Shown: positions 1,858 to 60,163 of the stretch, one piece after another | Numbering within the stretch: position 1 is the stretch's first letter | Layout of the letters: each line of letters opens with the position of its first letter | Virus record (IMG/VR): IMGVR_UViG_3300046167_000632 | Location: 1-62,030 of that record | Strand: one strand, 5' to 3' | DNA from: a virus | Taxonomy: Duplodnaviria > Caudoviricetes | DNA length: 62,030 nt | Position numbers and translations under genes: made by a program | Notes under the pieces: model-generated | The model's input: the letters and a program-made list of their open reading frames with translations, nothing else | Told to the model about the DNA's origin: nothing | The model's database searches: none

Positions 1858-2115
1858 ATGGGAAAATTAACAGAAGAACAATTAAATTCAGTAAAAAAAT
1901 CACAAGCAAAAATAAACGCCATACTGCTTGAGATAGGTTTTTTAGAAACCAGAAAAGCTGAATTTTTAGGAGCACATTTTGAAGCTGCTAAAGCATTAGA
2001 GGAAATTAAAAAAGAGCTAAAAGAAGAATATGGTGATATAACCATCAATTTAGCTGATGGATCTTTTGACAAAGTGGAAGCTAAAGATACAAAAACTCTT
2101 GAAGTAGTTGACTAA
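1858..2115 (+). CDS. hypothetical coiled-coil protein
   Basis: 85-aa ORF, helical, 'LKEEYGDITINLADG'. Confidence 0.7.
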   Translation: MGKLTEEQLNSVKKSQAKINAILLEIGFLETRKAEFLGAHFEAAKALEEIKKELKEEYGDITINLADGSFDKVEAKDTKTLEVVD

Positions 2116-2342
2116 TGGGTTCTGTTATAAGAAAAATAAGTATAGGTTCAGACTATAAGAATGATGCAATGCATTACTCTGTAGGTCAAGAAGTATATGG
2201 CGGTCACAAGATAGCTTATATACTGCTGAGCGAAGAAGATAACTCTTATAATATACACATCAAAAAAAACAATGAGGTAATGCCATGGAAGAAGTTTAAT
2301 TCTAACATGGCAATATCCATTGAATACGATCTTCAGTATTAA
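2115..2342 (+). CDS. hypothetical protein
   Basis: 75-aa ORF coupled by TAATG overlaps at both ends. Confidence 0.7.
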   Translation: MGSVIRKISIGSDYKNDAMHYSVGQEVYGGHKIAYILLSEEDNSYNIHIKKNNEVMPWKKFNSNMAISIEYDLQY

Positions 2343-2947
2343 TGAGAAGTGTATACGACTTTATTGTAGAGCCAATAGGAGAGAGATACGACAACGAGTT
2401 AAAAATAGGTGATAAGAAATTAGTTTTAAATTCTAAAATAGAAAGTCACAAGTTTATAAATAATAAAGCTAGAGTGATATCTGTGCCAATAGCCTTCAAA
2501 ACCCCTATAAAAATAGGTGATGAGGTTATTATTCACCACAACGTATTTAGAAGATACTATAACCAAAAAGGTAAAGAGGTAAATAGTAGTAAGTACTTTA
2601 AAGATAATAAATATTTTTGTCAATTAGATCAAATATATTTGTATGGTAGGGATAACTCGTGGAAACCTTTTAATAATAGATGCTTTGTAGCGCCTGTACT
2701 TAATAAGGATGAGTTAGAGCTAAAGAAAGATAAAAACCATGTTGGAATACTAAAGTATGGTAATAGTTCCTTAGAAGCTCTTAAAATAAACGAAGGAGAT
2801 GTTATAGGCTTTACACCTAACAGCGAATTTGAATTTGTCGTTAACGATGAATTATTATATTGTATGAAATCAAAAGATATTGTAATTAAATATGAGCACG
2901 AAAAAAACAAAGCTCAGTATAATCCAAGCTGGGCAAAAAGCAGTTGA
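2342..2947 (+). CDS. GroES-like (tandem co-chaperonin fold) protein
   Basis: Two GroES-like halves: 'ARVISVP...IKIGDEVII' and 'GILKYG...INEGDVIGF...EFVVNDELLYCMKSKDI'. Confidence 0.55.
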   Translation: MRSVYDFIVEPIGERYDNELKIGDKKLVLNSKIESHKFINNKARVISVPIAFKTPIKIGDEVIIHHNVFRRYYNQKGKEVNSSKYFKDNKYFCQLDQIYLYGRDNSWKPFNNRCFVAPVLNKDELELKKDKNHVGILKYGNSSLEALKINEGDVIGFTPNSEFEFVVNDELLYCMKSKDIVIKYEHEKNKAQYNPSWAKSS

Positions 2948-23653: not shown

Positions 23654-26600
23654 ATGTATACTTACAAAGATGCTTCATACACTGACGATCAGATAAAAAA
23701 AGCAGCTGAGCAATCTAATATGACTGTTAAAGAATATTTGAAAAAGCTAGAAGGAGATAAAGATCCTGAGCCTAAGATAAAAGACGGTGACTTGCTTGAT
23801 CCAAATTTTCAACAAGACGCTGCAGCGGGTGCGAATGCGGGGTCTCAACCAATGACAGCATCACAAGCGGGATATGTAGAAACAGAAGATACGGAATTAC
23901 TCTCGGAAGATACTTCTTCGGATTCAGTAAAAGTTAAACTACCTAAAGATAGAAAATACGGTAAAATTTTTGAAATTCCAAATTTTAAAAAACAATCACC
24001 TAAAGATATAGCTAATGCTTATAATCAAATGTATGGTGGTAAGGATGGTGGATTTGAATTTACTTCAAATGTAAATAACGTAACTATAAAAGCTTTAAAC
24101 GGTGAATCTATAACGGTAAATACTAAGGGTCTTTCAAATCCAATGGCTCAAGCGCGTATGAGGCAAGCTGATCCGTTCGATTTGTCAGGTAGTAAAACCT
24201 CTCCCCAGCAGGGTATTGGAGACGATCCCCAAGAAGTTATAAATAATTTTCTAAAAGAAAACTTCAATGAGGATTTAAATGTACAAAATCAAAAAAATAT
24301 TAAAAAATTTGAAAGTTCTATAACTGACAATATAGAGCAATTGGCTTATGATTATATTGAATCTGAAGATATTCCTTATGATCCCACTATGCCTATAAAC
24401 TCTTTAATGAAGTCAGATGGTTTTAGAGATTATGTAAGAAAAAACTCCGTTGAGAAATATGCTGAAAATAGAGACATATCAGGCTCTGGTTTTTTTGGTA
24501 GTATAAATTCTGAAGACATTGGCTTAACAGGTACTCAACCTGATAAATTAGTAGATAAAATGTTGCAAGACATGTCTGCTAAAGAAGAGCAATTAAATGA
24601 ATATAATATTATTGAGCAATATGTTAAACCGCTTAAAGAGTCTGGAAATTGGTTAGAAGCTAGTAACAGAGAGAAGTTGCAACATATAAATAGTATAAAA
24701 GACCCTAAACAAAAAGAACTTGCCAAGGTTAATGATAGATTAATTAAAATAAAAGAAAGCCTAAATCAACCTAATACAGGTGTTGGTGATGTGTCTCAAA
24801 GTGCTTTATCAGATGAATTTGAAAAACTAAAAGAAAGAGCTTCGCTTCTATTAAAACAAGCTATAGATGAAGATGCTGAGTTTTTATTTGCCTCAGACGG
24901 AACTAGAATTTCACCTGCATTAGCTAAAGCAAGTGGTGTAGATGTTGTTGATTTAACAAAAGACTATGATATAGCTAAAGTTGAGTTAAAAAAGAAACTA
25001 GATACCTCAGACTCTCAAACAATACAGAATGATTATAGAATACACTTAGCTGAATTTAGTGGTTTTCAAGAAGAGATAAATACTCGAAAGTTTGATATTA
25101 AAATCAAAGCTGGATTCATGCAAGAAGGTTCACCATTAGCCGAAAAATTATTTGATAGAGGTTATTCTATGATTGATACTAAAGGCAAGGAAACAACTTC
25201 AGAGTACGCAACAGAGGGTGTTATAAAAGGAGTTACGTTAAAAGACTTGATGGCAGTACAGCCTGGTTTTGCTACAGATGAAATAGTTATATCTAAGCCT
25301 GAAAGTAGACCAGGTGAAGCTACTATAACTATGAGTGATCTAGCTGGTTATGTAGCAAACACAAGACAAACTCAAAAAAGATTATCTACAGAACATGCTG
25401 CTTGGAAACAATTATATCTATTAAATGTAGATCCAGGTTCTATAAAAGCCAATGACATAGTTAGTCAAGGTGGTAATTTTATGGCGGGTGTATTAGATGC
25501 TTTGCCTGGACAAGGCAATGCTGGTTCTGATAGTTTTAGAAAAGATAATTTATTTAGAACAGATAGAGATGACTTGAATGATGCTGAAGCATTAATAAAT
25601 AAAGTAAACTCAACACTAGAACCAGATCAAAAGCCTTTTGAGTTATCTGCTGAGCAAATGGATTCTTTCAAGCAAGGGTTCGGAGAACAGTTTTGGACTG
25701 GTCTAGGTGGTTTTGTACCTATGATCGCGGAATTAGGTTTAGTTAGTGCCATGACTGGAGGTATGGGTAATTCTTTTGGTGTAGCTAACTACTTAAGTAA
25801 GTTAAAAAATGTAACCTACTTAGCTAAAACTGCTACAAAAGGCGCTACGCCTATATCTAGAGCTGTTGTAGCTGCTAAAGCTAAACAAGCTAAAATGAGT
25901 GTTGATGCGTATGTTAAGTCTCAAGGTTTAAGGAAGGCCACAGGTACTGCATTTAACAAGGCTCAAGCATTGTTTATTCAAGGAGCTCAAGAGGAAGGTA
26001 AGATGAAATTACTAAAATTTTTTGGCGTTGATATGCCTACTGGCGCAGGTGCTGGTTTTGTAATTGGTGGTCACGCTATGAGAAAAATATTACCTACTAA
26101 TGTGTTTAAAGGTTTCTCTGGAGCCGCAGCGATGAATACTGCTTTAGAAAAAGGTTTATACTCCGGTTTAGGTGGTGCTGCTGGCGCACAAACAGCTGCT
26201 CCATTAGAAGCCCTAATAGCTGACCTTCAAAACAAAAAATCTTTCGACACTTTTGTAGAGGAGAAGTATGGTGATATGGAAGACTGGGCTAAGCACGCTT
26301 TTATGGAGGCTTTGCAGTTTAGTGTGATTGGATTAACACATGCTAGTAAGGCTGACAGGAGCTTGACTATGCAGTCTAAAAGAAATCTATTACTTAGAAC
26401 AAACAAGGAAATAACTGACAGGTTAGAGAGAGGAGATGTAACAGATCAACTAGGTAACCAATTTCAATTAAGAAATGAATTAATAAATCAAATAAGAGTA
26501 GCTGAAAATAGAGAAAGATTCTTAGATAAAAATGTGTTGGCAGCGGAGACTCAAGGTTTGTTACAGAAATTTAACAAGCAATACAAAAAAGAAAATGGCA

Positions 26601-29600
26601 CAGATGCTTTTACTATGAATGTATCTACCAATGGTGAAGGCATGAAGCTAGGTGAAGGAGAATCAGCAGCCGTTACAAAACGTAATGGTAAACTACATGT
26701 GGATGTTGATGTGTCTAAAATGAATGAAGGTACACTTCCTCATGAAATATATCACGTTGTTTCGCGTTTAACTTTCGGTAAAGACGTAGGTGTACAAAAA
26801 GCACTACAAGAAGGATTAGCTAAGTCTGTTGGTAAAATGGATTTTGAAACTGTTGATCCAAGAACTGGAGAAATAAGAAATATAGAAAACTTACCTGAAG
26901 CAGTTAAAGAAGCTTACGAAAAAACACAAGATAAGGATTCAACTTTTGAGGAATTTAACGCTAACTTAATTGACTTGCTAAGTAGACCTGAAAATAGAGA
27001 CATGTTAATAGAAAACAACGTCTTAGGATCTCTAAAGCAAAATATAAATACTTTTTTAGAAAAATCTTTAACAGGTACTGCTTTAGAAAATACAAAGCTA
27101 GGTAAGGTTTTATTACCTGAACTAAATAATCCTGATGCTGTTGTCAAGTTTTTATCTAGACTAAGTAAAGACTTTGGTAAAGGTAACTATAGCCCAAAAT
27201 TAATAAAGCGATTTCAAGATATAGAAATAACTAAAGACGGTAAGAAACTAATTGAGAAACAGACTGGTAAGGTATTAAACATAGATAAAACTGCTCAAAA
27301 AGAGTTAAAACAAGAGTCTTTAGACCTATCTAATGCAAATAAAAAAGCTTTTGAAGAGTTTGAAGCAACTGGAAACAAATCGGATCTTATAGGTAAGGTT
27401 TATGAAAATAATCAAGGTTTAATACAAAGCTTTGTAAATAGAAAATTTGTAAAAGGATTAGGCGTATCAAGAGAGATGTTTGAAGGGGAGGTTGGATCAG
27501 AGATATACGATAAAATTCTCGGTACTTATTTAAAAAGAGATGCTAAATTAAAAGACGTGCCGTTTGGCGCTTATGCTAGACAAGCCTTGTTTGGTGGCGG
27601 TGCTTTTGGTGGAGGTAGACTTGGTAATATACTAAAAAGACTAGGCCAGCAAGGTGACTTATTTAATAAAGATCTTGAAAGTAAAGAAGCACAATCTGTG
27701 ATGTCTGAGGAGACTAGAGATTTTGATGAAAAAATTGTTTCGGAAAACAAAAAAACAGATCCTAAAGAACTACAATTAAGTATAGATGTTGTAAATGATT
27801 TAGTACCTGAAGTACAGAAAGATTTACAAGAAAAAAGCTTAACTAAAGAAACATATAAATCTTTAAGATTAGGGGAAAACGCTGCTAAAGCTCTAGCGAA
27901 GGCATACGATATACGTGAAAAAGATAAAACAACATCTGATGGTAAAAAGGTTAAAGGAGATTTACTACCAGAGTGGTTCACGGTACCCGCTAGAAACTTA
28001 CCCCAAGGTTCTATGGAAGGTTTTAGAAAATTAAGATCTGAGCTAAACAAAAATGCTCAAATGGTACTTAATATTTTACCTGAAGGTTACACGTTGGATA
28101 AAAAGTCTACAGGTGTGCCAAACTCTATACAAGAAGCATTTTACAATAAAAGAAAAATAGGTAGTAAGAACGTATATGAATTAAAGAAAAACATAAGTAT
28201 AAAGGATGTAAAAGATTTACTAAAAGAGCCAGAAGGTAAATTATATAGAGATAAACAAGTTCAACAGATAAAAGGCTTAGCGGAGTTAGTGTTTAGAGGT
28301 CTGGTGAATAACGTTGCTAGATCAAATATGAAAATAGAAGGAGCAACAGCTATAGAGTTACAGAAGTTAGCTGATGGTAAAAATCCTATGCTAGCTCAAC
28401 AGGTGCTAGGTAAATTAAAAAATACACCTGGACTAAACGAAGTTACTATTAAAAGATTAATTGGTAATTTTTTAGTAGATAGAGAAAAGTTAAGAGAAAC
28501 TAATCCTACTTTTGTAGAAAGATTTGAAAGCGAAATTATACAAGATAATATAGCTAAGGCTGAAGAAGGCAAAGCTGACGCTCCAACATTTAAGACTTCA
28601 GATAAAGCTGATATTAAAATAGCGGAGATAAATGGTGCGCCTAAAGGCGTTGATATAAGCAATATCATAGATGGCAACACCGGTAAGTCTATGCGTTCAA
28701 CAGAGACTTTTAAAAGAAAAACTGGTAAGTTTAAAAAAGGAGTATTTATAAAAGGTACTGAAGGTCCTGAGATGAAAAGATCTATATTTGATACAGCTAG
28801 ACTTGAAACCTTTTTAGATGGAATAAGTGAACTTTCAAAGTATTACCCTGAAGATTTACAGAAATATTTTACTAAAGAGGTTCTACTACAGTCGTTTGGA
28901 AGTACTAGTAGAGGTACCGCTAGAAATGTAGGTAAGGATGCTAGAAAAATAACCACAGAAGGTAAGTTGATGTCAGAGAGTGATCTTAGTAAAGGTCAGT
29001 ATGAAAGAATAACAGATAACCTAGGAAAGCTATATAAAGAAGGTGTATTTGATAATATAGAGCCTGGAGATTTTATGAGTGATGCACAGCAAAAGAATGC
29101 GTTACAAAAATTTCAAAATACCGGAGATATAAATGTTCTTAATAAATACATAAATTCTAAAGATAACGCATATAAATCAGATGTTTATTACGCTATGGGC
29201 GTTGCTAAGCAAAAATATTTATATGATGCTAAAACTTCAGCTGAATTCGAAAAAAGAGCAAAAGTTATATATCAATTAGCAGCTGAGAATAGTGGAGCTA
29301 CTTCTGGTTATGGTAGACAGTTTGTACCTATAATGGCTGTAAAGAAAACAGGTGAACCTGGTAGAATGAAGTTGGAACATTTAAAGTCCTCCTTAGAGCA
29401 GTCGATGCAAGAAGCTAAAGCTATTGTAGAAGGTAGATGGATGAAAGATGGTAAAAAAATAATGAACGACTATAAGGGTATTATATCTTTCAAAAAATAC
29501 CTAGACGTAATAGACAAGTTAGGTGGTGTTACAAATACTTCTGGTTTAGCTAGGATGGTTTTAGATTTCGAAAACTTAAAAGACTACGTAACTGTTGAAA

Positions 29601-32600
29601 GTGGTTTTAAAGAAACTCTATACGATAAATTAATGACTGATAATGCTCAGCGTGTTGGAGCAAAATTAAGAGAGCTAAATGTGCCGTGGATGAAAGACAA
29701 GGTTGCTGCAATATCTCTAGAACCTAGTAAATCTAATGAAGTTTTACTAAAAAGTTCTTTAGATAATAAAGCAGATGTTAAGTCTAGCTGGAAAGCCAAC
29801 GTTGAGTTGTCTAAGAAAGCAGGTACTTTAGACAATAAAAACTCTAGTAATGCTGAATTACTTGAAAATTTAAAAAATAGAGATAAAGCTATTAGCTTAG
29901 CTCAGAAGAAATTAAAAGAAACTAAAAAAGCTAGAGTCTTTGATTTTGATGATACGCTAGCTAGAACTAAAAGCAACGTGCTGTATACAATGCCTAATAA
30001 TGAAGGAGGTTTCAGCAAAGGTTCTACTAAATTAAAAGCTATATTTATGGTTGGTGGTCCTGGCGCTGGTAAAACAAACGTAGGTAAAGGACTACAGCTA
30101 GGTAGAAGAGGTTATAAAGTAGTTAATCAAGATATAGCTCTTGAAGCTATGAAAACAGAATCCGGATTACCTGCTAATGAATCAAACTATACAGCTGAGC
30201 AAAGATCAATTAGGTCTAAGTTAGGTTCTGCCGCTAGAAAAGCAGCTGTAGCTAAGTTCGATAAGTATGCCGCTAATGGAGACGGTATGGTAATTGATGG
30301 CACTGGCGCTTCATATAACGCTACTACTAAAAAGATAAAAGCATTACAAGAAAAAGGCTATGAAGTACATATGGTTGTAGCTAACACACCGTTAGAAACA
30401 GCATTAGAAAGAAACAGAGCTAGAAAAGAAAGATCACTAGAAGATTTTATTGTAGAAAAAACTTATAACCAAGTTCAAGAAAGTTTAGCTAAATATAGAG
30501 AGGATTTTGGAGATCGTTTATACGAAATAAATACTGAAGCTATAGAGTACGGAAAACCACTTCCAGGTGATTTCCTGCAAGGAGTTTACAAAGGAATAAA
30601 CGCTAACAAAGTAGGTAAAGTAGATGCTGCTACATTTGCTAAAGAAGCGGGTAATATGGAAGCTCAAGGAGCTCAATGGGATTTCTCTGAGTTTAGTAAG
30701 GTGATGCAAGGTAGCAAAGGACCTTTATTCGAAGTAGCTAAGTCTATAAGTGAAAGCCCAGGTGAAAGAGATATGTTCGTATTAACAGCTAGACCAGCAG
30801 ATGCAGCTCCAGCTATAAAAAGTTTTTTAAAAGAACTAGGTTTAGATATACCGTTAGAAAACATAACAGGTTTAGCAAATGGAGCTCCATCGGCTAAAGC
30901 TAACTGGATGCTTAAGAAAGCAGCTGAAGGTTATAATGACTTTTACTTTGCTGATGATCACTTAGGTAATGTTAAAGCTGTTAAAGATGTATTAAGTGTA
31001 GTAGATGTTAAAAGCAAAGTACAATTAGCATTAGCACAGAAAAAGCTAGGAAAAACATTTAATGATATAATACAGGAAAAAACAGGTATAGCTTCAGAAA
31101 AAGTTTTTGGAGAAGCTAAAGCTGAAATAATGGGTAAAAGCAAAGGTAAGTTTGATGTATTTATATCACCAACCGCTGAAGACTTTGCTGGTCTACTATA
31201 CAAGACTTTACCAAAAGGTAAAAAAGGTGAAAATGCTCTTAAGTTCTACAAAGAAAACTTATTCGATCCATTTGCTAGAGCTGAGGACAATATTACTAGA
31301 GATCAAGTAGCATTAAGTAATGATGTTAGAGCTTTAAAAAATAGACTGGGTATAATACCTAAGAAACTAAGAAAGAAAAATGAAACAGGTTTTACTAACG
31401 AGCAGGCTTTAAGAGTTCGTATGTGGACAAAAATGGGTTTAGAAGTTCCTGGCTTAAGCAAGTCTGATACTAGCTGAACTTAATAAAGTCATAAAAGATA
31501 ACCCAACATATGAAGCTTTTGCAAATGAACTTCTATCAACAACTAAAGGTGATGGTTGGGCTGAACCAGGCGAAAGGTGGCTTAGCGGTACATTGACTAG
31601 TGATGCTATGGCATTACTTGGTAAAGTAAAAAGAGCTAAGTACTTGGAGCAGTGGAAGCAAAATAAAGATGAAATATTCTCAAAAGCTAATTTAAATAAA
31701 CTAGAAGCAGCTTATGGTAAGAAGTACAGGAAAGCATTAGAAAAGACCTTAGAAAGGATGCAGTCTGGAAGAAATAGAAATTCTAAAAACACGGCTGGCG
31801 ATAGAGCTTTAGATTATATAAATAACTCTGTTGGTGCTATAATGTTTTTAAATACAAGATCAGCTGTTTTACAAACAATTTCTAGTATAAACTTTATAAA
31901 CTGGACAGATAATAATCCTTTAAAAGCTGGCGCTAGACTAGCGGATGTAAAGCAATATTCTAAAGATTTCTTAGAGATAATGAATTCTGACTACTTAGTA
32001 GCTAGACGTGATGGATTAAAATTAAATGTAAGTGAGGCTGAAATAGCTGCAGATACAGGCGCTAAGGGTATAATAAATACAATACTAAAAAAAGGTTTTG
32101 TATTTACTAAATACGCTGATAGTTTTGCTATAGCTTCAGGTGGTGCTACTTTTTATAGAAATAGAATAAACACTTATAAAAAGCAAGGGCTATCTGAGAT
32201 AGAAGCTAAAGAAAAAGCTTTTATAGACTTTAAAGAAATATCTGAAGAATCTCAACAATCATCTAGAACAGATAAGATAAGTCAACAACAGGCTAGTAAC
32301 TTAGGTAGAGTTATTTTAGCTTTTGCTAATACACCAATGCAGTATGCTAGGTTGCAGAAAAAAGCTATGTTAGACCTCGCTAATAGAAGAGGGGATTGGA
32401 GAGAACATACATCTAAAATAGTTTACTACGGATTTGTACAAAACTTAATATTTAATGCAATACAAAATGCTTTATTTGGTTTAGCCTTCGCTGACGATGA
32501 GCAAGATGAAAAGTTACTGTCTAAATCAGGAAGAGTTGCTAACGGTATGGCTGATTCATTACTTAGAGGTACTGGTATACCAGGAGCAGTAGTTGCTTCA

Positions 32601-33029
32601 GTAAAAAATGCTCTTATGGTTATAAATAGTGAGTCTGATAAAAAAAATCCTAAGTATTCTAAAGCTATTAAAGAAATAGTTAGCATGTCTCCAACCATAT
32701 CATCTAAATACAAGAAGCTAGTAAATGCGTCAAAAGCAGCCGAATATGGAGCTTTTGACAACATGGAGTTTAGTTTAGATAATCAAGCATATATGGCTAT
32801 AGCTAATGTTATTTCAGCTACAACAAACGTTCCAGTTGATAGAGCTTTACGTAAAGCACAGAATATAGAAGGTGCTTTAAATGAAGACTATGATACATGG
32901 GAAAGAATAGCTATGGCAGCTGGTTGGCAAGATTGGGAGTTAGGTATAGGAAAAAAGAAAAAGAGTAAGAAAAAGAAAACTACAAAAAAGAAGAAACAAT
33001 CCGGAGGAATAACATTTGACGAATTTTAA
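23654..33029 (+). CDS. giant polyvalent virion protein (~3,100 aa; frameshift near 31475): metallopeptidase, sigma-2-like segment, HAD phosphatase with nested P-loop kinase
   Basis: HEIYH (26741), FDFDDT (29942), GGPGAGKT (30053), LTARP (30782), FADD (30950); 31593-33029 continues the frame. Confidence 0.8.
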
Positions 33030-38620: not shown

Positions 38621-39370
38621 TTATAAGCTTTCTTGTTTAACAAATGTTCCATTAACCATTTTACCCTGTCTAGACTTTATAACGTTATACGCGCTGTCTA
38701 TACATTTTTCTATGCTATAGCCTCTAAGCTCTGCTAAGTTAGTTAATACAACAACCATATCGCCAATAGCATCTATTACTTCAGGTTCATCGTTCTTTAA
38801 TATAGCCTGAGCAAGCTCACCAGCCTCTTCCATAAGTTTCACAAACTGAGTTCTGGCATCACCTGATTTATATATACCCTTGTCTCTAGCCCATTGACGT
38901 ATATCATCAAACCTGTTTGATTCTGTATTTTGCTCTATAAACTTATTAGCGTATGCTTTATTATATATATAACATCTGTTTACGTTAAACATAGATGTTC
39001 TAGCGTTTTTAACTATCCAGTCAATAGTTTGATTGTCTAAGCTAAATACTCCATTATTGGTTGACCATTTTAAGCCTATATTATCCATAAGTTGTCCTTT
39101 AAGCTTATTTAAAGGCACTGGAAATGTTGATGTTTGTTCTGTTGCGTTTATATTCATTTGATTAAATAGTTTTTTATATGGTTTTATATCTACTTTGTAG
39201 CCATAAGACTTTTGAAGTTCTATTTCCTTGTCAGATATATAATCTATATCATCGCTAGTAAGTAGAACTTCGTATTCGTCTGGTCTGTAACCCTGTTGGA
39301 TAGTTACCCGACTATTAAGATCACGTGTAACACCGATCTTTTTACCAGGTATGTGGTATAAATAATACAT
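38621..39370 (-). CDS. MazG-like NTP pyrophosphohydrolase with GIY-YIG-like N-terminus
   Basis: C-terminal KLMEEAGEL...DAIGD; N-terminal YYLYHIPGKKIGVT..L..R; probable start at 39370. Confidence 0.75.
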   Translation of the reverse strand: MYYLYHIPGKKIGVTRDLNSRVTIQQGYRPDEYEVLLTSDDIDYISDKEIELQKSYGYKVDIKPYKKLFNQMNINATEQTSTFPVPLNKLKGQLMDNIGLKWSTNNGVFSLDNQTIDWIVKNARTSMFNVNRCYIYNKAYANKFIEQNTESNRFDDIRQWARDKGIYKSGDARTQFVKLMEEAGELAQAILKNDEPEVIDAIGDMVVVLTNLAELRGYSIEKCIDSAYNVIKSRQGKMVNGTFVKQESL

Positions 39371-39374
39371 AATT

Positions 39375-40016
39375 TTATAGTTTATTATTATATAGGTGCA
39401 TGTTATGAGCGTGGTGATAATACCAGCCCGTTTCAATAGACAGCCTGTCTGCAACCATTTCCTGCAATGATGCAAATTGATACTGATCATTACAGAAACC
39501 GTACCAGATGTCATTAGAACGCATATAAACTGACATACACAGTCTATTGTTTATGATCGTAAATTGCACAGCATAAGTACATGGCGTGTCATAACCGTAG
39601 TCACTTATTTCTTTAGCATCATATATAGATATAGCTGCTTGTCTAGTGCTTGGATCTCTTCTAAGTATATCAACGACATTATCTAATTGATTTCTACGCT
39701 GCCATTGGTAACCATAATTAGAATTAACCTTACGATCTTCATTTGCCATACGTTCCCATATAGGTGGTATACTACCATATAATTCTCCTAATTTGTCAAT
39801 ACTAGGATCACCAGATAAATACCAAGCCCATTCAGCTGCGGCGTATTTTTTATTCCACTTACGTTCAACATTTGTTATAACTTTATCTGAAGGATTATCT
39901 ATATAAAAACCACAGTTGAATATAGCCCTTGTATCACCAAAGTCAATACCTTTTTGCAGTATTTCATCTATAACACCTTCATATGCTTCATTAGCATTGT
40001 TAAATCTTGTTTTCAT
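39375..40016 (-). CDS. thymidylate-synthase-superfamily enzyme, T4 gp42-like dCMP hydroxymethylase type
   Basis: NSNYG, PCT, MRSNDIWYGFCND (Asp at the dUMP/dCMP specificity position), NMHLY. Confidence 0.75.
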   Translation of the reverse strand: MKTRFNNANEAYEGVIDEILQKGIDFGDTRAIFNCGFYIDNPSDKVITNVERKWNKKYAAAEWAWYLSGDPSIDKLGELYGSIPPIWERMANEDRKVNSNYGYQWQRRNQLDNVVDILRRDPSTRQAAISIYDAKEISDYGYDTPCTYAVQFTIINNRLCMSVYMRSNDIWYGFCNDQYQFASLQEMVADRLSIETGWYYHHAHNMHLYNNKL

Positions 40017-43781: not shown

Positions 43782-44561
43782 TTACAGGAAGTCAATCACT
43801 TGCGAGCTATCTACATTGGCTATTAACTTGTCTATTGCAGCCTTTTTTATCTCAGATATTCGCACATAATTACTAACTCCAGTTATATTCAACTTAACAG
43901 CTATTTCTTTAGCTGAGTGCTTGTCACAGTCCATACCGTAACTCAGTCTTACTACTTCATACTCAGCATTGCTTAAGTATTGTTTCATTATACCCATAAG
44001 ATATGCATTCATTAAATCTATATTGTAAGATTCAGATTCATCCGCAACATCATAACTCATTTCAACATCGTCGTTCTTATAAGTATTACTTTTACTTGTA
44101 TGCTTATTATCTAATGAAGCAAACATACTAGTTATAAATATTTTACTTAAGTCTTCGTTGTCGGGATTTTTACGTATCTCGTTTAGTTTATGCTCTGGTA
44201 TTCTCATACCGCCTTTGTTTATATCTATTCTTCTACGTATTGCACCTTTAATTCTCTTACTTAAAAATGATTTTAAAGTTTTTTCAACATCAGGTGATTC
44301 ATCTATAACTAACCAATCTATTTTATTTACAGCCTTGATTAATGCTTCGTTACCTATTTGTATTAAGTCATTAATACTTAGTATTCCAGAGGCTTGATCG
44401 CTGGTTGAAAACTTTCTAGCTAAATTTTCTACTAAAGGCATAAACTTTATTATAAGTTCGTCTTTAGTGTATTCATCCCAGAACTTACCTTCAAGATTAG
44501 CTATAGATGTTTTAACATCTGTTTTATATCTTATATAATTCTGTACATTATATTTCTTCAT
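43782..44561 (-). CDS. sigma70-family RNA polymerase sigma factor
   Basis: Region 2 'LVENLARKF...DLIQIGNEALIKAV', 'MRIP', region 4 'VVRLSYG...SAKEIA...RISEIK.AIDKL'. Confidence 0.85.
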   Translation of the reverse strand: MKKYNVQNYIRYKTDVKTSIANLEGKFWDEYTKDELIIKFMPLVENLARKFSTSDQASGILSINDLIQIGNEALIKAVNKIDWLVIDESPDVEKTLKSFLSKRIKGAIRRRIDINKGGMRIPEHKLNEIRKNPDNEDLSKIFITSMFASLDNKHTSKSNTYKNDDVEMSYDVADESESYNIDLMNAYLMGIMKQYLSNAEYEVVRLSYGMDCDKHSAKEIAVKLNITGVSNYVRISEIKKAAIDKLIANVDSSQVIDFL

Positions 44562-45949: not shown

Positions 45950-46777
45950 TTACTCATAATTTCTAATTGTTTTGAAGAACGGATGCCTGTAGCTATTAGC
46001 CTTAGTACGTTCGAAGTAAGTAAAGGTAGCACGCTGACCTATGTAGTCATTAATGTTAATGAGTATGTCTGCTAAATCCTTGTAGTTGTAGCCTTTGCCT
46101 GGTGGACAACCAAACCGTACACCTTCGTCATCTAGCATTATAAACTTACCAAGCGTGCCTTGTCGCTTACCTTTACCTTCTACGTAGTCTACAATAGTAG
46201 CTTCAGTGTCGTGAAAGTCTTTGAACTTTTGTAAGTTATAAGAACGTTTTTGTTCATATCTTTTATTCAGTCTAAGTATAGAGCCTTCATAGCCCTGAGC
46301 CAAGTGTACATTATGTAACATCTTAGCTTCATCATAACTACTGACTAATGTATTTTTAATAAGAGTTAATGAAGCAGCTATAGGTAGATTTGTAGTCAGC
46401 CAATTAAATCTTTGTTCATACACAGGACCTTCCGCAATAGTATCATAAACATGATACTGTACAAGGTGTTGTGCATTTCTCATATCGTCTTCAGTTGGAG
46501 TTTGTTTTCTAACTAAAGATATAATTTTCTCAAAGTCATTGCTCAACGCGTGGTTGTAAAGCTCACCGTCTAGTACAGTGAACGGATGTTTAGAAAAGAA
46601 GTCTTGTAGATCATAAGTTATATGTCTTACATTTTTGAACTCCTTACCTGTACGTGAGTAAGCACCGTCTTTGGTAAATATACAACGCACGCCATCTAGC
46701 TTAGGTTGTAAGAAAACTTTCTCGGACCAGTCGACAGGTTTCTTGTCTACTTTGTATGCGAGCATAGGTTTTATCAT
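45950..46777 (-). CDS. ATP-dependent DNA ligase
   Basis: QPKLDGVR, LDGELY, YEGSILR, KFK, RHP motifs. Confidence 0.92.
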   Translation of the reverse strand: MIKPMLAYKVDKKPVDWSEKVFLQPKLDGVRCIFTKDGAYSRTGKEFKNVRHITYDLQDFFSKHPFTVLDGELYNHALSNDFEKIISLVRKQTPTEDDMRNAQHLVQYHVYDTIAEGPVYEQRFNWLTTNLPIAASLTLIKNTLVSSYDEAKMLHNVHLAQGYEGSILRLNKRYEQKRSYNLQKFKDFHDTEATIVDYVEGKGKRQGTLGKFIMLDDEGVRFGCPPGKGYNYKDLADILININDYIGQRATFTYFERTKANSYRHPFFKTIRNYE

Positions 46778-58609: not shown

Positions 58610-60163
58610 ATGGATGCAATAGTTAAAAATCTAAACTTCGGAGAGAAGGCTAGAAAAAACGTCTATGAGGGTATAGACAAGTTAACAAAAGCTGTAAGCT
58701 CTACATTAGGTGCTAGCGGTAAATGCGTTATGCTAGAAGATCACACTGGTAAACCAATAATAACAAAAGACGGTGTTACAGTGGCAGAGTCAGTTATATT
58801 AAGAGATCCAGTTGAAAACATGGGAGCTACGCTTTTAAAAGAAGCGGCTCGTAAAACTGTTAAAGAGGCTGGCGATGGTACAACTACAGCTACAGTACTT
58901 GCTCATGCAATACTTACTGAGGCTTACGAAGTCTTAGATAAAACAAATAGTAGAGATTTAAAAGAAGGTATTGACAAGTCTGTTGAAGCTGTTGTAGATT
59001 ACTTAAAAGAGAACTCTGTAGAAGTAACTGATGACATGCTAGATCAAGTAGCTACTATATCAACCAACAACGATCCTGAATTAGGTAAGATAATTGGTGA
59101 TGCTTTTAGGTTAGTTGACTTAACAGGTGTTGTCGTAATGGAACCTACAGAAGATAATGAAACTTCGGTTGAATTAGTCGAAGGTGTAGAGTATGACAAA
59201 GGACTTGTAAACTCACATTTTGTAACAAGCAAAACAAAAAGAGCTGCAGAACTTGAAAACGCTTTAGTGTTAATAGTAGAATCACCAGTTGAGTCTATAA
59301 GAAAAATACAAAGTGTTTTAGAATATGTTATAAAGAATAACAAGGCTTTATTAGTCATAGCTGATTGTGAACAAAGCGTTATATCGGCACTGGCAATGAA
59401 TAAGGTTAAGGGTAATATAAAAGTAAACGTCATAAACGCACCTACATATGGTGTAAGCAAAAAAGATACATTAAATGACTTAGCACTATTAACTGGCGCT
59501 ACAGTTATAAATGAAGATCTTGGAGATGATATGGACCTTATACAACCAGAATATCTAGGAAGTTGCTTAAAAAGCATTACAACAGACCTAGAGACTATAA
59601 TACAAGTAGAGGATAATAATCCAGATGTAGAAAAACTAGTCAAAGACTTAAGACATCAAATAGAAACAACTAAAAATCCTAACGAGATAATAAGACTAGA
59701 AAGAAGACTTGGTAGAATATCGGCTAAGGTTGCTATTGTCAAGGTTGGGGCAAATTCTGAAATAGAATTAAAAGAAAAACAGGATAGGGTTGAAGACGCT
59801 ATCTGTGCTACTAAAGCCGCAATAAAAGAAGGTATTGTTTCTGGTGGTGGCATTGCACTCCTAAATGCATCAAACAAAATAAAAGCAAAAACAGTAGGGG
59901 AGAAAGTTTTATTGAAGGCAATAAAGGCTCCATTTAAAACAATACTAAGTAATGCCGGTATAGATAAATACGACAAGCCTGATGCTGATGGTAAAGGATT
60001 AAACGTGGTTACAGGAAATATGGTAAATATGATAGACTCAGGAATTATCGATCCTTTACTAGTAACTAAAAGCGCTTTAAGAAACGCGGCTTCTGTAGCA
60101 TCAACAATACTATCTACTGATTGTGTAATTAATAACTTGAGGATTGATGATAGCAATAGGTAG
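58610..60163 (+). CDS. groEL: chaperonin GroEL
   Basis: [44 protein letters not shown]. Confidence 0.97.

Follow-up and report, generated by a model that had tools for sequence, protein, structure and literature searches.

Why would a phage place a P-loop kinase inside a HAD phosphatase, and carry the pair in one giant protein encoded at the end of its virion operon? The question arises at a locus in IMG/VR virus record IMGVR_UViG_3300046167_000632, all 62,030 nucleotides of which we analysed and refer to as the window. A sequence-only reading of this DNA had described a kinase lying between the two halves of a HAD domain, had likened the combination to the end-healing polynucleotide kinase-phosphatase (Pnkp) of T4, and had proposed that the activity is delivered at injection. 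The phage is marine and belongs to a lineage of abundant uncultured podoviruses that are kin to phages of Flavobacteriia, the host class to which its terminase relatives point. No tRNA genes were found in the window.

A kinase nested in a HAD phosphatase

The module (nt 29906-31036) is a domain-in-domain two-enzyme unit in which the catalytic motifs of both enzymes are intact. Its kinase falls in the AAA_33/PNK/zeta clade of P-loop kinases. Motif I supplies the predicted nucleophile D2097 and the predicted acid/base D2099 of the HAD, and the remaining HAD motifs follow the kinase (Table 1). All eight motifs named in the sequence-only reading lie where it placed them, and the nested architecture stands as it was described: both catalytic sets are conserved, and in the model the two HAD halves combine in one fold. 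The cassette contains the P-loop lysine K2140, the Asp of its NQD motif (D2160), a DGTG motif and the lid ERNRARKER with R2253, R2257 and R2260. Over aa 2128-2270 it matches Pfam AAA_33 (E 2.9e-14, 54 bits, cut-off 27) and Pfam Zeta_toxin (E 4.4e-11, 43 bits, cut-off 22.3). Across 25 aligned nested homologs (43-82% identity), D2097, D2099, T2378/A2379/R2380, K2415 and D2434/D2435 of the HAD are invariant, as are D2160 and R2253/R2257 of the kinase. No part of the giant protein is better conserved than the module; against 17 full-length homologs, mean identity is 76-79% over the kinase stretch, ~10% over the N-terminal 2,000 aa and 30-54% over the C-terminal parts.

Table 1. Coordinates of the giant gene, its module and motifs, and the ligase gene in the window
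Feature	Nucleotides	Strand	Residues	Remarks
Giant ORF, part A	23654..31477	+	2607 aa	final gene of the virion operon
Gly-rich hydrophobic segment	25691..25768	+	aa 680-705	Kyte-Doolittle scan only
HExxH (HEIYH)	26741..26755	+	aa 1030-1034	candidate zincin peptidase
HAD N-part	29906..29995	+		strand S1 with motif I DFDDT, and first flap strand
VFDFDDT	29936..29956		aa 2095-2101	
Kinase cassette	29996..30613	+	aa 2115-2320 (~206 aa)	tip of flap hairpin
GGPGAGKT	30053..30076		aa 2134-2141	
VVNQD	30119..30133		aa 2156-2160	
VIDGTG	30290..30307		aa 2213-2218	
ALERNRAR	30401..30424		aa 2250-2257	
HAD C-part	30614..31036	+		second flap strand; motif II T-A-R, motif III K2415, motif IV D2434-D2435
LTARP	30782..30796		aa 2377-2381	
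KANW	30896..30907		aa 2415-2418	
FADD	30947..30958		aa 2432-2435	
One-base frameshift (approximate site)	31469	+		part A ends at TGA 31475-31477
Giant ORF, part B	31470..33029	+	519 aa + stop	conserved C-terminal domain
ATP-dependent DNA ligase	45950..46777	-	275 aa	sole ligase found

An AlphaFold model of the nested module (pLDDT 88.6, pTM 0.77) brings the two HAD halves together. Both are predicted to form a single domain, with motif I on model strand E8-13 and the kinase between the two flap strands; HAD matches cover model residues 5-377, so that the halves make one fold. The predicted seat of the kinase, the tip of the flap hairpin, is the C1-cap site as defined in passages of PMC8069645. 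Full-text literature searches returned no description of a full P-loop kinase at a HAD C1-cap site.

Motifs, models and phrog_415 are the basis for assigning the HAD, because sequence searches gave nothing significant: PF00702 reaches E 0.03 and 15 bits on the window HAD, under its cut-off of 26.4; insert-free HADs have no significant match in Pfam or NCBIfam; a profile of 18 insert-free homologs retrieves nothing significant for the HAD among PDB sequences; and tblastn of the homolog P0202 against isolate phages returns nothing significant. In four of four insert-free homologs the one PHROG that covers the HAD is phrog_415, labelled 'polynucleotide kinase', which spans their full length (E 1.6e-6 to 0.042). 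The top fold match of the HAD in the nested model is the T4 Pnkp phosphatase (5uj0_B, Z 13.2, rmsd 2.3, 126/142 residues). The model of an insert-free homolog gives Z 13.1 for the T4 Pnkp phosphatase, 12.5 for Pnkp1 (4xrp) and 12.1 for T4 1ltq, generic HADs reaching at most 11.3 and the P domains of P-type ATPases only 9-10. This plain HAD has a minimal cap only and matches C0-type Pnkp phosphatases best; HADs of C0 type are, in passages of PMC8069645, those that act on macromolecules. Its nearest relatives in the Atlas are stand-alone viral HADs of ~200 aa.

A cassette exchanged among near-identical HAD alleles

The kinase is a discrete cassette that has been repeatedly gained, lost or exchanged among near-identical HAD alleles, and in other phages other domains fill the same flap site. 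Homologs inspected for presence or absence of the insert, a check named in the sequence-only reading, include natural forms of both kinds. A clear case is the pair P0006 and P0186, which have 99-100% identity downstream of the HAD; what sets them apart is a clean swap between a 4-residue turn and the ~206-aa kinase cassette. Among 150 cluster representatives, 64 are nested and 57 have the HAD without the kinase; 15 score for the kinase only, one of them a cut nested form, leaving 14 true cases. The kinase and HAD occur apart in six, a different insert of ~140 aa occupies the same site in four, and four are N-truncated. Linkage of the two domains takes three arrangements, namely nested, with the kinase ~1,000 aa upstream, and as a HAD-then-kinase tandem. 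In a tree of 132 HAD C-halves, starred branches force at least 8 changes of the 'nested' label and parsimony 12, and the window HAD is sister (98, starred) to the HAD of the insert-free P0181.

Alternative inserts at the flap hairpin measure about 45, about 140 and about 150 aa, and the ~140-aa insert of relatives has an Atlas lead to ART-PolyVal (score 0.85). An intein was considered as the identity of the cassette and rejected: by eye, its junctions in P0006/P0186 have neither an N-terminal Cys/Ser/Thr nor a C-terminal His-Asn. The module is present in at least 511 to 576 IMG/VR stretches, and 696 homologous cluster representatives are found at E <= 1e-30; none of the isolates in the phage collection carries it.

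Likeness to Pnkp enzymes and other systems

The kinase most resembles those of Pnkp enzymes. Its top fold match is the kinase of Clostridium thermocellum Pnkp (4gp6_A, Z 16.8, rmsd 2.9, 164/171 residues), which is also its top match among PDB sequences (E 0.005) and has the ERNxxRxxR lid in common with it. The significant part of that sequence alignment covers the C-terminal half only, and in C. thermocellum Pnkp (4gp6/4gp7) the kinase has a metallophosphoesterase and a ligase-like domain as its fusion partners, with no HAD. Aligned by hhalign with T4 PseT (Prob 79%, E 1.6e-5), the kinase pairs D2160 with T4 D35, the general base, and R2253/R2257 with T4 R122/R126, the lid arginines. Aligned with T4 Arg38 is L2163, a nearly invariant Leu; this Arg, three residues past the Asp, is essential in T4, where the terminal nucleotide's 3'-phosphate binds to it. 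On the phosphatase side, the T4 residues concerned are Arg176, which follows motif I and is essential, and Arg213, which follows motif II. N2108 aligns with Arg176, in an alignment that covers motif I only; an invariant R2380 follows motif II (T-A-R), and the Arg213 region of T4 lies outside the hhalign alignment.

The PNKP-like reading offered from the sequence therefore survives in part. What stands is that both domains have Pnkp enzymes as their best folds; what speaks against it is that the residues aligned with T4 Arg38 and Arg176 are Leu and Asn, and that the sequence link of the HAD goes no further than motif I. An insert-free alignment run against T4 PseT with hhalign aligns motif I alone (Prob 11%), and membership of the T4 Pnkp family at the sequence level was dropped, since HAD homology to T4 ends there. 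Matches to the NCBIfam Pnkp models are all far under their cut-offs.

T4 Pnkp and the module both join a P-loop kinase and a DxDxT HAD phosphatase on one polypeptide, but in T4 the kinase is N-terminal in a free enzyme of 301 aa, whereas here it sits inside the HAD flap of a protein of ~3,125 aa. The domains are also differently oriented, with an rmsd of 21.5 Å when both are aligned together, and T4 has by annotation partner RNA ligases, of which none was found here. Pnkp1 of Capnocytophaga gingivalis (4xrp), a member of Flavobacteriia, likewise combines a kinase with a HAD phosphatase and matches across both domains (Z 13.3). Its domains, however, are in tandem, and it works in complex with a ligase and Hen1 (Pnkp1-Rnl-Hen1 RNA repair), partners that were not found here. 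For the position of the insert there is a likeness to the P-type ATPases, whose nucleotide-binding N domain is set mid flap hairpin of a HAD-fold P domain, at the C1-cap site (described in passages of PMC8069645). That N domain, which is no P-loop kinase, phosphorylates the Asp of the HAD itself, a relay neither shown nor required for the module.

Proposed function, delivery and competing explanations

The ORF that carries the module had been taken for the whole gene, which proved wrong. A one-base frameshift cuts the gene; homologs are uninterrupted at this point, and homology of the window resumes in the +1 frame and runs on through part B (Table 1). The intact protein would have ~3,125 aa, homologs having 2,900-3,300 aa, with a hypervariable, mosaic stretch of ~2,080 aa at its N-terminus. 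The gene lies downstream of terminase and PHROG 'virion structural protein' genes, all on one strand. Syntenic giant genes in Elemovirus are annotated 'structural protein', the syntenic gene of MW202828 encodes a 3859-aa protein, and the part B domain is common to a 2482-aa 'structural protein' of Tenacibaculum phage Gundel_1. BLASTP of the giant protein against the 3859-aa protein shows no similarity, and tblastn of its N-terminal 1982 aa against isolate phages finds nothing; because of these null results, no homology with giant proteins of cultured relatives can be demonstrated, save for the Gundel_1 C-terminal domain. We infer delivery at injection from the last position in the virion operon and from the 'structural protein' label given in isolates to giant genes that are syntenic or homologous in part.

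The giant protein is also like the polyvalent proteins (Iyer et al. 2017, PMC5512222) in being multidomain, encoded with late or virion genes, mosaic and modular, and in joining unrelated enzymes with an HExxH motif. The polyvalent signature domains (LPD, MuF, ART-PolyVal and MPTase) have no Pfam match in P0001, P0181 or part B. The word 'phosphatase' is absent from the main text of that article; its supplementary architecture lists may include kinase-HAD combinations.

Our leading reading, which we hold tentatively and at somewhat less than even confidence, is that the module is a virion-delivered nucleic-acid end-healing pair in which the HAD is basal and the kinase an add-on. The giant protein would be packaged and would enter the cell with the DNA, in the manner of polyvalent proteins (Iyer et al. 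2017). There, ahead of all phage gene expression, the phosphatase would strip 3'-phosphates from broken RNA or DNA and the kinase would phosphorylate its 5'-OH ends. Healed ends could then be sealed by the small ATP-dependent DNA ligase of the phage or by a host ligase. The phosphatase would be the basal activity, with the kinase completing end healing in phages that have the cassette.

The ligase content of these genomes bears on this reading. The sequence-only reading had noted a DNA ligase and no RNA ligase, and searches of the window with PF09414 and RtcB bear it out. No Rnl1, Rnl2 or RtcB was found in the window; the search with PF09511 (Rnl1) is uninformative, its control being without any match. 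No RNA ligase was found in seven long records of nested type either (RtcB 0/7), which with the window makes eight kinase-bearing genomes. PF09414 matches in two of the seven were rejected as RNA ligases, the same ORFs scoring higher with PF01068 (DNA ligase). By inference, the 275-aa DNA ligase is a candidate sealing partner. In eleven of eleven long plain-HAD phage records, ten of which have a completeness of 90% or more, neither a kinase homolog nor an AAA_33 match occurs at any position; the window control of this search matches at E 1.3e-17. The predicted phosphatase thus works without a 5'-kinase in many phages, and since the kinase is optional, both in these records and in the 57 of 150 representatives with the HAD alone, an obligatory pathway that heals both ends is weakened.

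In a stronger form of the end-healing reading, the flap hairpin would be a socket into which recombination swaps whole effector domains (kinase, ART-like and others), and the kinase would act as a C1 cap over the phosphatase site, so that the 3'-phosphate and the 5'-OH at one nick or break are healed in one binding event by an enzyme that arrives preformed with the DNA, and nucleic-acid-cutting defences are defeated before gene expression. The analog would be the ATP-binding N domain over the P domain in P-type ATPases. We consider this form rather improbable. Against the end-healing reading as a whole it counts that unrelated inserts use the same hairpin, and nesting may therefore mean a permissive loop rather than functional coupling.

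A permissive loop is also the premise of an explanation that we judge unlikely but deserving of weight, in which kinase and HAD are two independent effectors. The kinase would be a zeta-like small-molecule enzyme (acting on a UDP-sugar, NAD or similar) that disturbs the envelope or the metabolism of the host upon entry, a role that Iyer et al. 2017 (PMC5512222) propose for zeta-like kinases in polyvalent proteins. The HAD would be unrelated to it, and recombination would place cassettes in a flap hairpin that simply tolerates them. The Zeta_toxin score of 43 bits, the first Foldseek rank of zeta 3q8x (VIA zeta Z 14.6, PezT 13.5) and the HMMER alignment of the window's DGTG...GYE to the matching zeta stretch, in the Walker B strand area, all speak for a zeta-like enzyme. 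A zeta-type P-loop (GxxGxxKT, here GGPGAGKT) and the catalytic Asp D2160 are present as well; for a domain carried within so large a protein, no cognate antitoxin of epsilon/PezA type would be anticipated. Independence itself is favoured by the other inserts that the flap site takes and by the representatives with one of the two domains alone, 14 with the kinase and 57 with the HAD. However, the GTGR of zeta is GTGA here (PezT has GTLR in HMMER), in agreement with the 25-homolog consensus, and passages of PMC6362051 have the GTXR motif binding UNAG (UDP-GlcNAc) through its Arg. The C-terminal extension of zeta/PezT is absent, the kinase being ~190 aa against ~270 aa, and the lid motif and the best structure and sequence matches are Pnkp-type. 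Three kinase-HAD linkages are moreover hard to explain without a functional tie between the domains.

The pair could instead handle nucleotides or signals, with the HAD as a nucleotidase, or as a phosphatase of small phosphorylated metabolites or of signals used in defence, and the kinase acting on nucleosides or nucleotides, so that nucleotide pools are reshaped or a phosphorylated signal is removed early in infection. Stand-alone kinase homologs adjoin an NT5C-type 5'-nucleotidase (Melnitz) and a cytidylyltransferase and DUF6267 (HTVC008M), and have weak PHROG thymidylate kinase matches; no RNA-repair context was seen beside those of HTVC008M, Melnitz and Atu_ph07. The stand-alone viral HADs nearest to the plain HAD point the same way, as do adenylate, dephospho-CoA, gluconate and deoxynucleoside kinase folds at Z 10-12, but these folds score 4-6 Z units under the Pnkp kinase. 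The C0-type match of the plain HAD favours macromolecular substrates (passages of PMC8069645), and there is no evident reason to place a metabolic enzyme in a giant virion-operon protein. We consider this explanation quite improbable. We hold it very improbable that host proteins are the targets and that the two domains are a protein kinase and a protein phosphatase which, for instance, reverse or impose abortive-infection phosphorylation. C0 HADs do include protein phosphatases such as MDP1 (passages of PMC8069645; MDP-1 1u7o, Z 10.0), and protein-modifying domains are frequent in polyvalent proteins according to parts of PMC5512222, but protein-phosphatase HADs score 3 Z units under T4 Pnkp, and the kinase is of P-loop and not Hanks type, with no protein-kinase family matched in Pfam or NCBIfam. 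Decay, inertness or an assembly artefact is scarcely credible. The frameshift does truncate the ORF in this contig, but it lies ~430 nt downstream of the module, whose catalytic residues are invariant, which surpasses the rest of the protein in conservation, and which is intact in at least 511 IMG/VR stretches and in hundreds of database proteins.

If virion-delivered end healing is true, it would provide counter-defence before phage gene expression in a lineage that is abundant in metagenomes. Whatever the substrate, a kinase in the C1-cap site is of interest to protein scientists, and the near-isogenic natural pairs with and without the cassette lend themselves to tests of how one domain can enter another with neither being destroyed. 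The use of one site by alternative inserts suggests that giant phage proteins have a general means of diversifying the enzymes they carry.

The N-terminal region of the giant protein has further features of its own. Its HExxH motif, a possible zincin peptidase as read from the sequence, is also present in four of four giant homologs read full length. The Gly-rich hydrophobic segment listed in Table 1 may be a membrane segment, as may a second one at aa 786-804.

Architecture and fold of the module

The anatomy of the module is secure. Every HAD and kinase motif named in the sequence-only reading was located at its position in the window's giant protein (see table). The kinase, which that reading had typed as zeta-toxin/AAA_33, passes the curated cut-offs of both Pfam families at aa 2128-2270 (AAA_33, E 2.9e-14; Zeta_toxin, E 4.4e-11), and judged by these profile matches its assignment is statistically solid. 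The HAD was undetected by curated sequence models (PF00702 gave only E 0.03), and was therefore tested by other means. When aa 2085-2470, the module, are aligned with 24 homologs sharing 43-82% identity, HAD residues D2097, D2099, T2378-A2379-R2380, K2415 and D2434-D2435 are invariant, as are the kinase P-loop G/K (K2140), N2158, D2160, D2215-G-T-G, R2253, N2254, R2257, E2259 and R2260.

Coordinates of module motifs, window genes and the giant genes of related phages
Feature	Amino acids	Nucleotides	Remark
HAD motif VFDFDDT	2095-2101		
Kinase cassette	2115-2320	29996-30613	
Kinase motif GGPGAGKT	2134-2141		
Kinase motif VVNQD	2156-2160		
Kinase motif VIDGTG	2213-2218		
Kinase motif ALERNRAR	2250-2257		
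HAD motif LTARP	2377-2381		
HAD motif KANW	2415-2418		
HAD motif FADD	2432-2435		
Small ATP-dependent DNA ligase		45950-46777	
GroEL-like chaperonin; protein with C-terminal MazG domain; sigma-factor-like protein		58610-60163; 38621-39514; 43782-44561	chaperonin listed first; Cpn60 E 2.2e-59
MW202828 giant gene	3859 aa	741-12320	end of structural operon, as in window
Elemovirus giant gene	3694 aa	18719-29803	annotated 'structural protein'; end of structural operon
Gundel_1 giant gene	2482 aa	5563-13011	upstream of portal gene

An AlphaFold2 model of the module, made with this 25-sequence alignment, has a pLDDT of 88.6 and a pTM of 0.77. In a structural search against representatives, HAD chains align across model residues 5-377, and the N-terminal strand bearing motif I and the C-terminal 140 aa thus belong to one fold; the split halves, expected to fold together, do so in the model. 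The HAD best matches the 3'-phosphatase domain of T4 Pnkp (5uj0_B; Z 13.2, rmsd 2.3 Å, 126/142 residues). The kinase sits between model strands 24-30 and 234-240, which together make up the hairpin after S1. A review places the C1-cap site in the middle of this 'flap' hairpin and locates the nucleotide-binding domain of P-type ATPases there (PMC8069645); the window likewise carries an inserted domain at this site, in its case a kinase.

Homologs with and without the kinase

HMMER, run on 1.84 billion cluster representatives, returned 2,556 proteins at E <=1e-3 and 696 at E <=1e-30, and a word-index search limited to long proteins yielded over 115 (1,400-3,360 aa, 68-87% identity over the module), many from contigs of ~60 kb. 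The insert is present in some homologs and absent from others. When the best 150 representatives were sorted with local HMMs, one each for the kinase and the N- and C-parts of the HAD, 64 were nested as in the window, 57 had a HAD without kinase (five of them with an extra ~45-50 aa at the insert site), 15 had a kinase only (including P0242, a C-truncated nested form), 6 had both domains apart, 4 were N-truncated fragments starting within the kinase, and in 4 another insert, of ~140 aa, occupied this site. The representatives were ranked by their similarity to a nested query, and the proportions are not population frequencies. Among the six 'apart' forms the kinase lies ~1,000 aa upstream in four and directly follows the HAD in two; the HAD of P0124, with its kinase upstream, additionally carries a ~150-aa insert.

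Nested P0006 and plain P0186 are 99-100% identical across ~800 aa from the HAD on and have identical upstream flanks, but a four-residue turn in one is cleanly swapped for the ~206-aa kinase cassette in the other. In a maximum-likelihood tree built from 132 HAD C-halves, the nested state requires 12 changes, at least 8 of them forced by starred branches, and the window's HAD groups as sister (98*) with the HAD of the insert-free homolog P0181. The clean swap and the repeated changes of state therefore mark the kinase as a cassette mobile between HAD alleles. Transfer would most simply proceed by homologous recombination in the conserved flanks, and the HAD is evidently functional with or without the kinase.

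Other inserts at the hairpin tip measure ~140 aa (P0198, P0215, P0223, P0225), ~150 aa (P0124) or ~45-50 aa (P0250, P0253, P0254, P0259, P0260). The ~140-aa insert had no match in a Pfam scan; it has an H..Y..E-like pattern, and a likeness to ART-PolyVal and AcrIF11-type ADP-ribosyltransferases (protein Atlas, 0.85) offers a lead only. A short [KRQ][FY]S[KR] motif flanks modules upstream of the HAD (24/131) and downstream (52/129), greatly in excess of the chance expectation of ~0.018 per 35 aa, and in kinase-only proteins it often recurs on either side of the kinase; the window's module borders (aa ~2083 and ~2462) have LAQKKL on either side in its place. The motif could be a recombination joint or a protease site.

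Relatives of the two domains and possible function

By fold, the kinase best matches that of C. thermocellum Pnkp (4gp6_A; Z 16.8, rmsd 2.9, 164/171 residues); PSTK (Z 15.8), the putative kinase 2rhm (15.5) and zeta toxin (14.6) come next, with T4 Pnk (13.9-14.2), PezT (13.5) and Pnkp1 (13.3) lower. C. thermocellum Pnkp is also its best PDB sequence match (E 0.005) and has the same ERNxxRxxR lid. When the family alignment is compared with T4 PseT, hhalign (Prob 79%, E 1.6e-5, 141 columns) pairs D35 with D2160 and R122/R126 with R2253/R2257, but R38, a nucleotide-binding arginine of T4, faces a Leu (L2163). The window aligns well with zeta around the Walker B strand, but GTXR, the motif that binds UDP-GlcNAc (PMC6362051), is GTGR in zeta and GTLR in PezT and GTGA in the window. 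Foldseek places zeta at rank 1 (E 1e-7), closely followed by C. thermocellum Pnk and T4 Pnk. From these matches, GTGA and L2163, the kinase is therefore a member of the PNK/zeta/AAA_33 clade that lacks both the known UNAG determinant and one T4 nucleotide-binding arginine.

Cultured, unrelated phages have stand-alone or differently fused kinase homologs at 33-37% identity: that of Melnitz-3 adjoins an NT5C-type HAD nucleotidase gene, that of HTVC008M is flanked by DUF6267 and a cytidylyltransferase, and that of Atu_ph07 forms the middle part of a protein of 778 aa (phrog_12810).

For the phosphatase we also modelled a natural insert-free homolog, P0202 (HAD part pLDDT 75-91). It matches the T4 Pnkp phosphatase best (Z 13.1), with Pnkp1 from the Capnocytophaga RNA-repair complex second (12.5) and T4 Pnkp at full length third (12.1); generic HADs reach Z <=11.3, and the lead of Pnkp in this model, ~2 Z units, is modest. 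The sole PHROG covering the HAD, phrog_415 ('polynucleotide kinase'), matches 4/4 insert-free homologs (E 1.6e-6 to 0.042). According to PMC8069645, HADs with minimal caps, MDP1 and PNKP being named, are those accepting macromolecular substrates.

Because the nearest solved relatives of both domains are Pnkp enzymes, and the domains are linked in three arrangements, we lean, tentatively, towards a 3'-phosphatase and 5'-kinase acting on broken nucleic acids. The phosphatase would be the basal function, acting on 3' ends, and the kinase an accessory that would act on 5' ends. The PNKP likeness proposed from sequence holds for those relatives, whereas against T4 hhalign covers only motif I of the HAD and the kinase lacks a counterpart of R38. 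It is rather unlikely that the two are effectors independent of each other, the kinase being zeta-like, acting on small molecules and sitting in a permissive loop: the Zeta_toxin match and the Foldseek ranking favour such a kinase, but the Arg of the UDP-GlcNAc-binding motif is replaced by Ala. We give less credence still to a nucleotide or signal-metabolite pair, find protein substrates improbable, and hold an inert or artefactual module to be the most improbable of all.

Eleven long plain-HAD IMG/VR records, of which 10 are at least 90% complete and three have terminal repeats, contain no kinase homolog and no AAA_33 match, the window being detected as positive control. As the sequence-only reading had it, the window encodes a DNA ligase, with no Rnl2-type ligase or RtcB found; RtcB is also absent from 7 long nested-type records. 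PF09414 matches in two of these 7, considered as RNA ligases, are DNA-ligase ORFs. The small ATP-dependent DNA ligase occurs in the window, 7/11 plain-type and 6/7 nested-type records, and its presence therefore does not track the kinase. The kinase-less plain-HAD phages and the negative searches for Rnl2-type ligase and RtcB are evidence against an obligatory heal-and-seal pathway.

Full-text literature searches found no description of a P-loop kinase inserted in a HAD cap or of a virion-delivered or ejected polynucleotide kinase-phosphatase, excerpts of the 'polynucleotide kinase' and 'polyvalent protein' literature (including PMC7824862) describe no such module architecture, and the module is absent from all isolates of the phage collection. 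The pair is of a known kind, Pnkp-like, here inside a polyvalent-type giant phage protein; new is the unprecedented domain-in-domain, cassette-swapping architecture.

The giant gene and its phage

Against 17 full-length nested homologs, identity is ~10% over the first 2,000 aa (effectively unalignable), averages 76-79% (maximum 93%) at aa 2101-2300, the kinase, is ~60% at 2301-2500 and 30-54% beyond. For the N-terminal 2,080 aa (nt 23654-29900) the best relative is P0181, a plain HAD protein (40% identity over 2,148 columns). The module is thus the most conserved part, uncoupled from the rest of the protein, and the giant gene is a recombinational mosaic.

Homologs extend ~520 aa past the last residues of the ORF. 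One extra base at ~31469 precedes its stop (31475-31477), and the homologous reading resumes in the +1 frame at nt 31470-33029; close homologs such as P0002 (3128 aa) are unbroken here. Since the site (31460-31481) has no homopolymer run or slippery heptamer, we take the base as a sequencing error or recent mutation. The continuation matches the 'structural protein' of Tenacibaculum phage Gundel_1 (26% identity, E 8e-6) over the C-terminal part of that protein. The MW202828 giant protein shows no detectable similarity to its counterpart in the window, and a Pfam scan of it gave neither kinase nor HAD, leaving Gundel_1 as the sole one of the two to share the window's C-terminal domain.

An HExxH (HEIYH) at aa 1030 (26741-26755), which recurs in the four giant homologs inspected over their whole length, and hydrophobic stretches rich in Gly at aa 680-705 (25691-25768) and 786-804 suggest a zincin peptidase and membrane-active segments, like those of ejection/polyvalent proteins. 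No signature Pfam domain of the polyvalent class was detected in the window protein, P0181 or the continuation; the mosaic, multi-enzyme build nevertheless fits the concept set out in Iyer et al. 2017 (PMC5512222).

The window, 62,030 bp long, is one IMG/VR virus record with an estimated completeness of 96%. Its large terminase is nearest to that of uncultured 'Caudoviricetes sp.' MW202828 (63% identity), followed by Flavobacterium Elemovirus phages (~44%); the remaining matches are from Cellulophaga, Tenacibaculum and Maribacter phages. On the + strand the terminase precedes several PHROG 'virion structural protein' genes and the giant ORF (23654..31477, 2607 aa), after which the coding strand flips to replication and nucleotide-metabolism genes. 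Further window genes encode RNR subunits, thymidylate synthase, Erf, an exonuclease and a primase-helicase.
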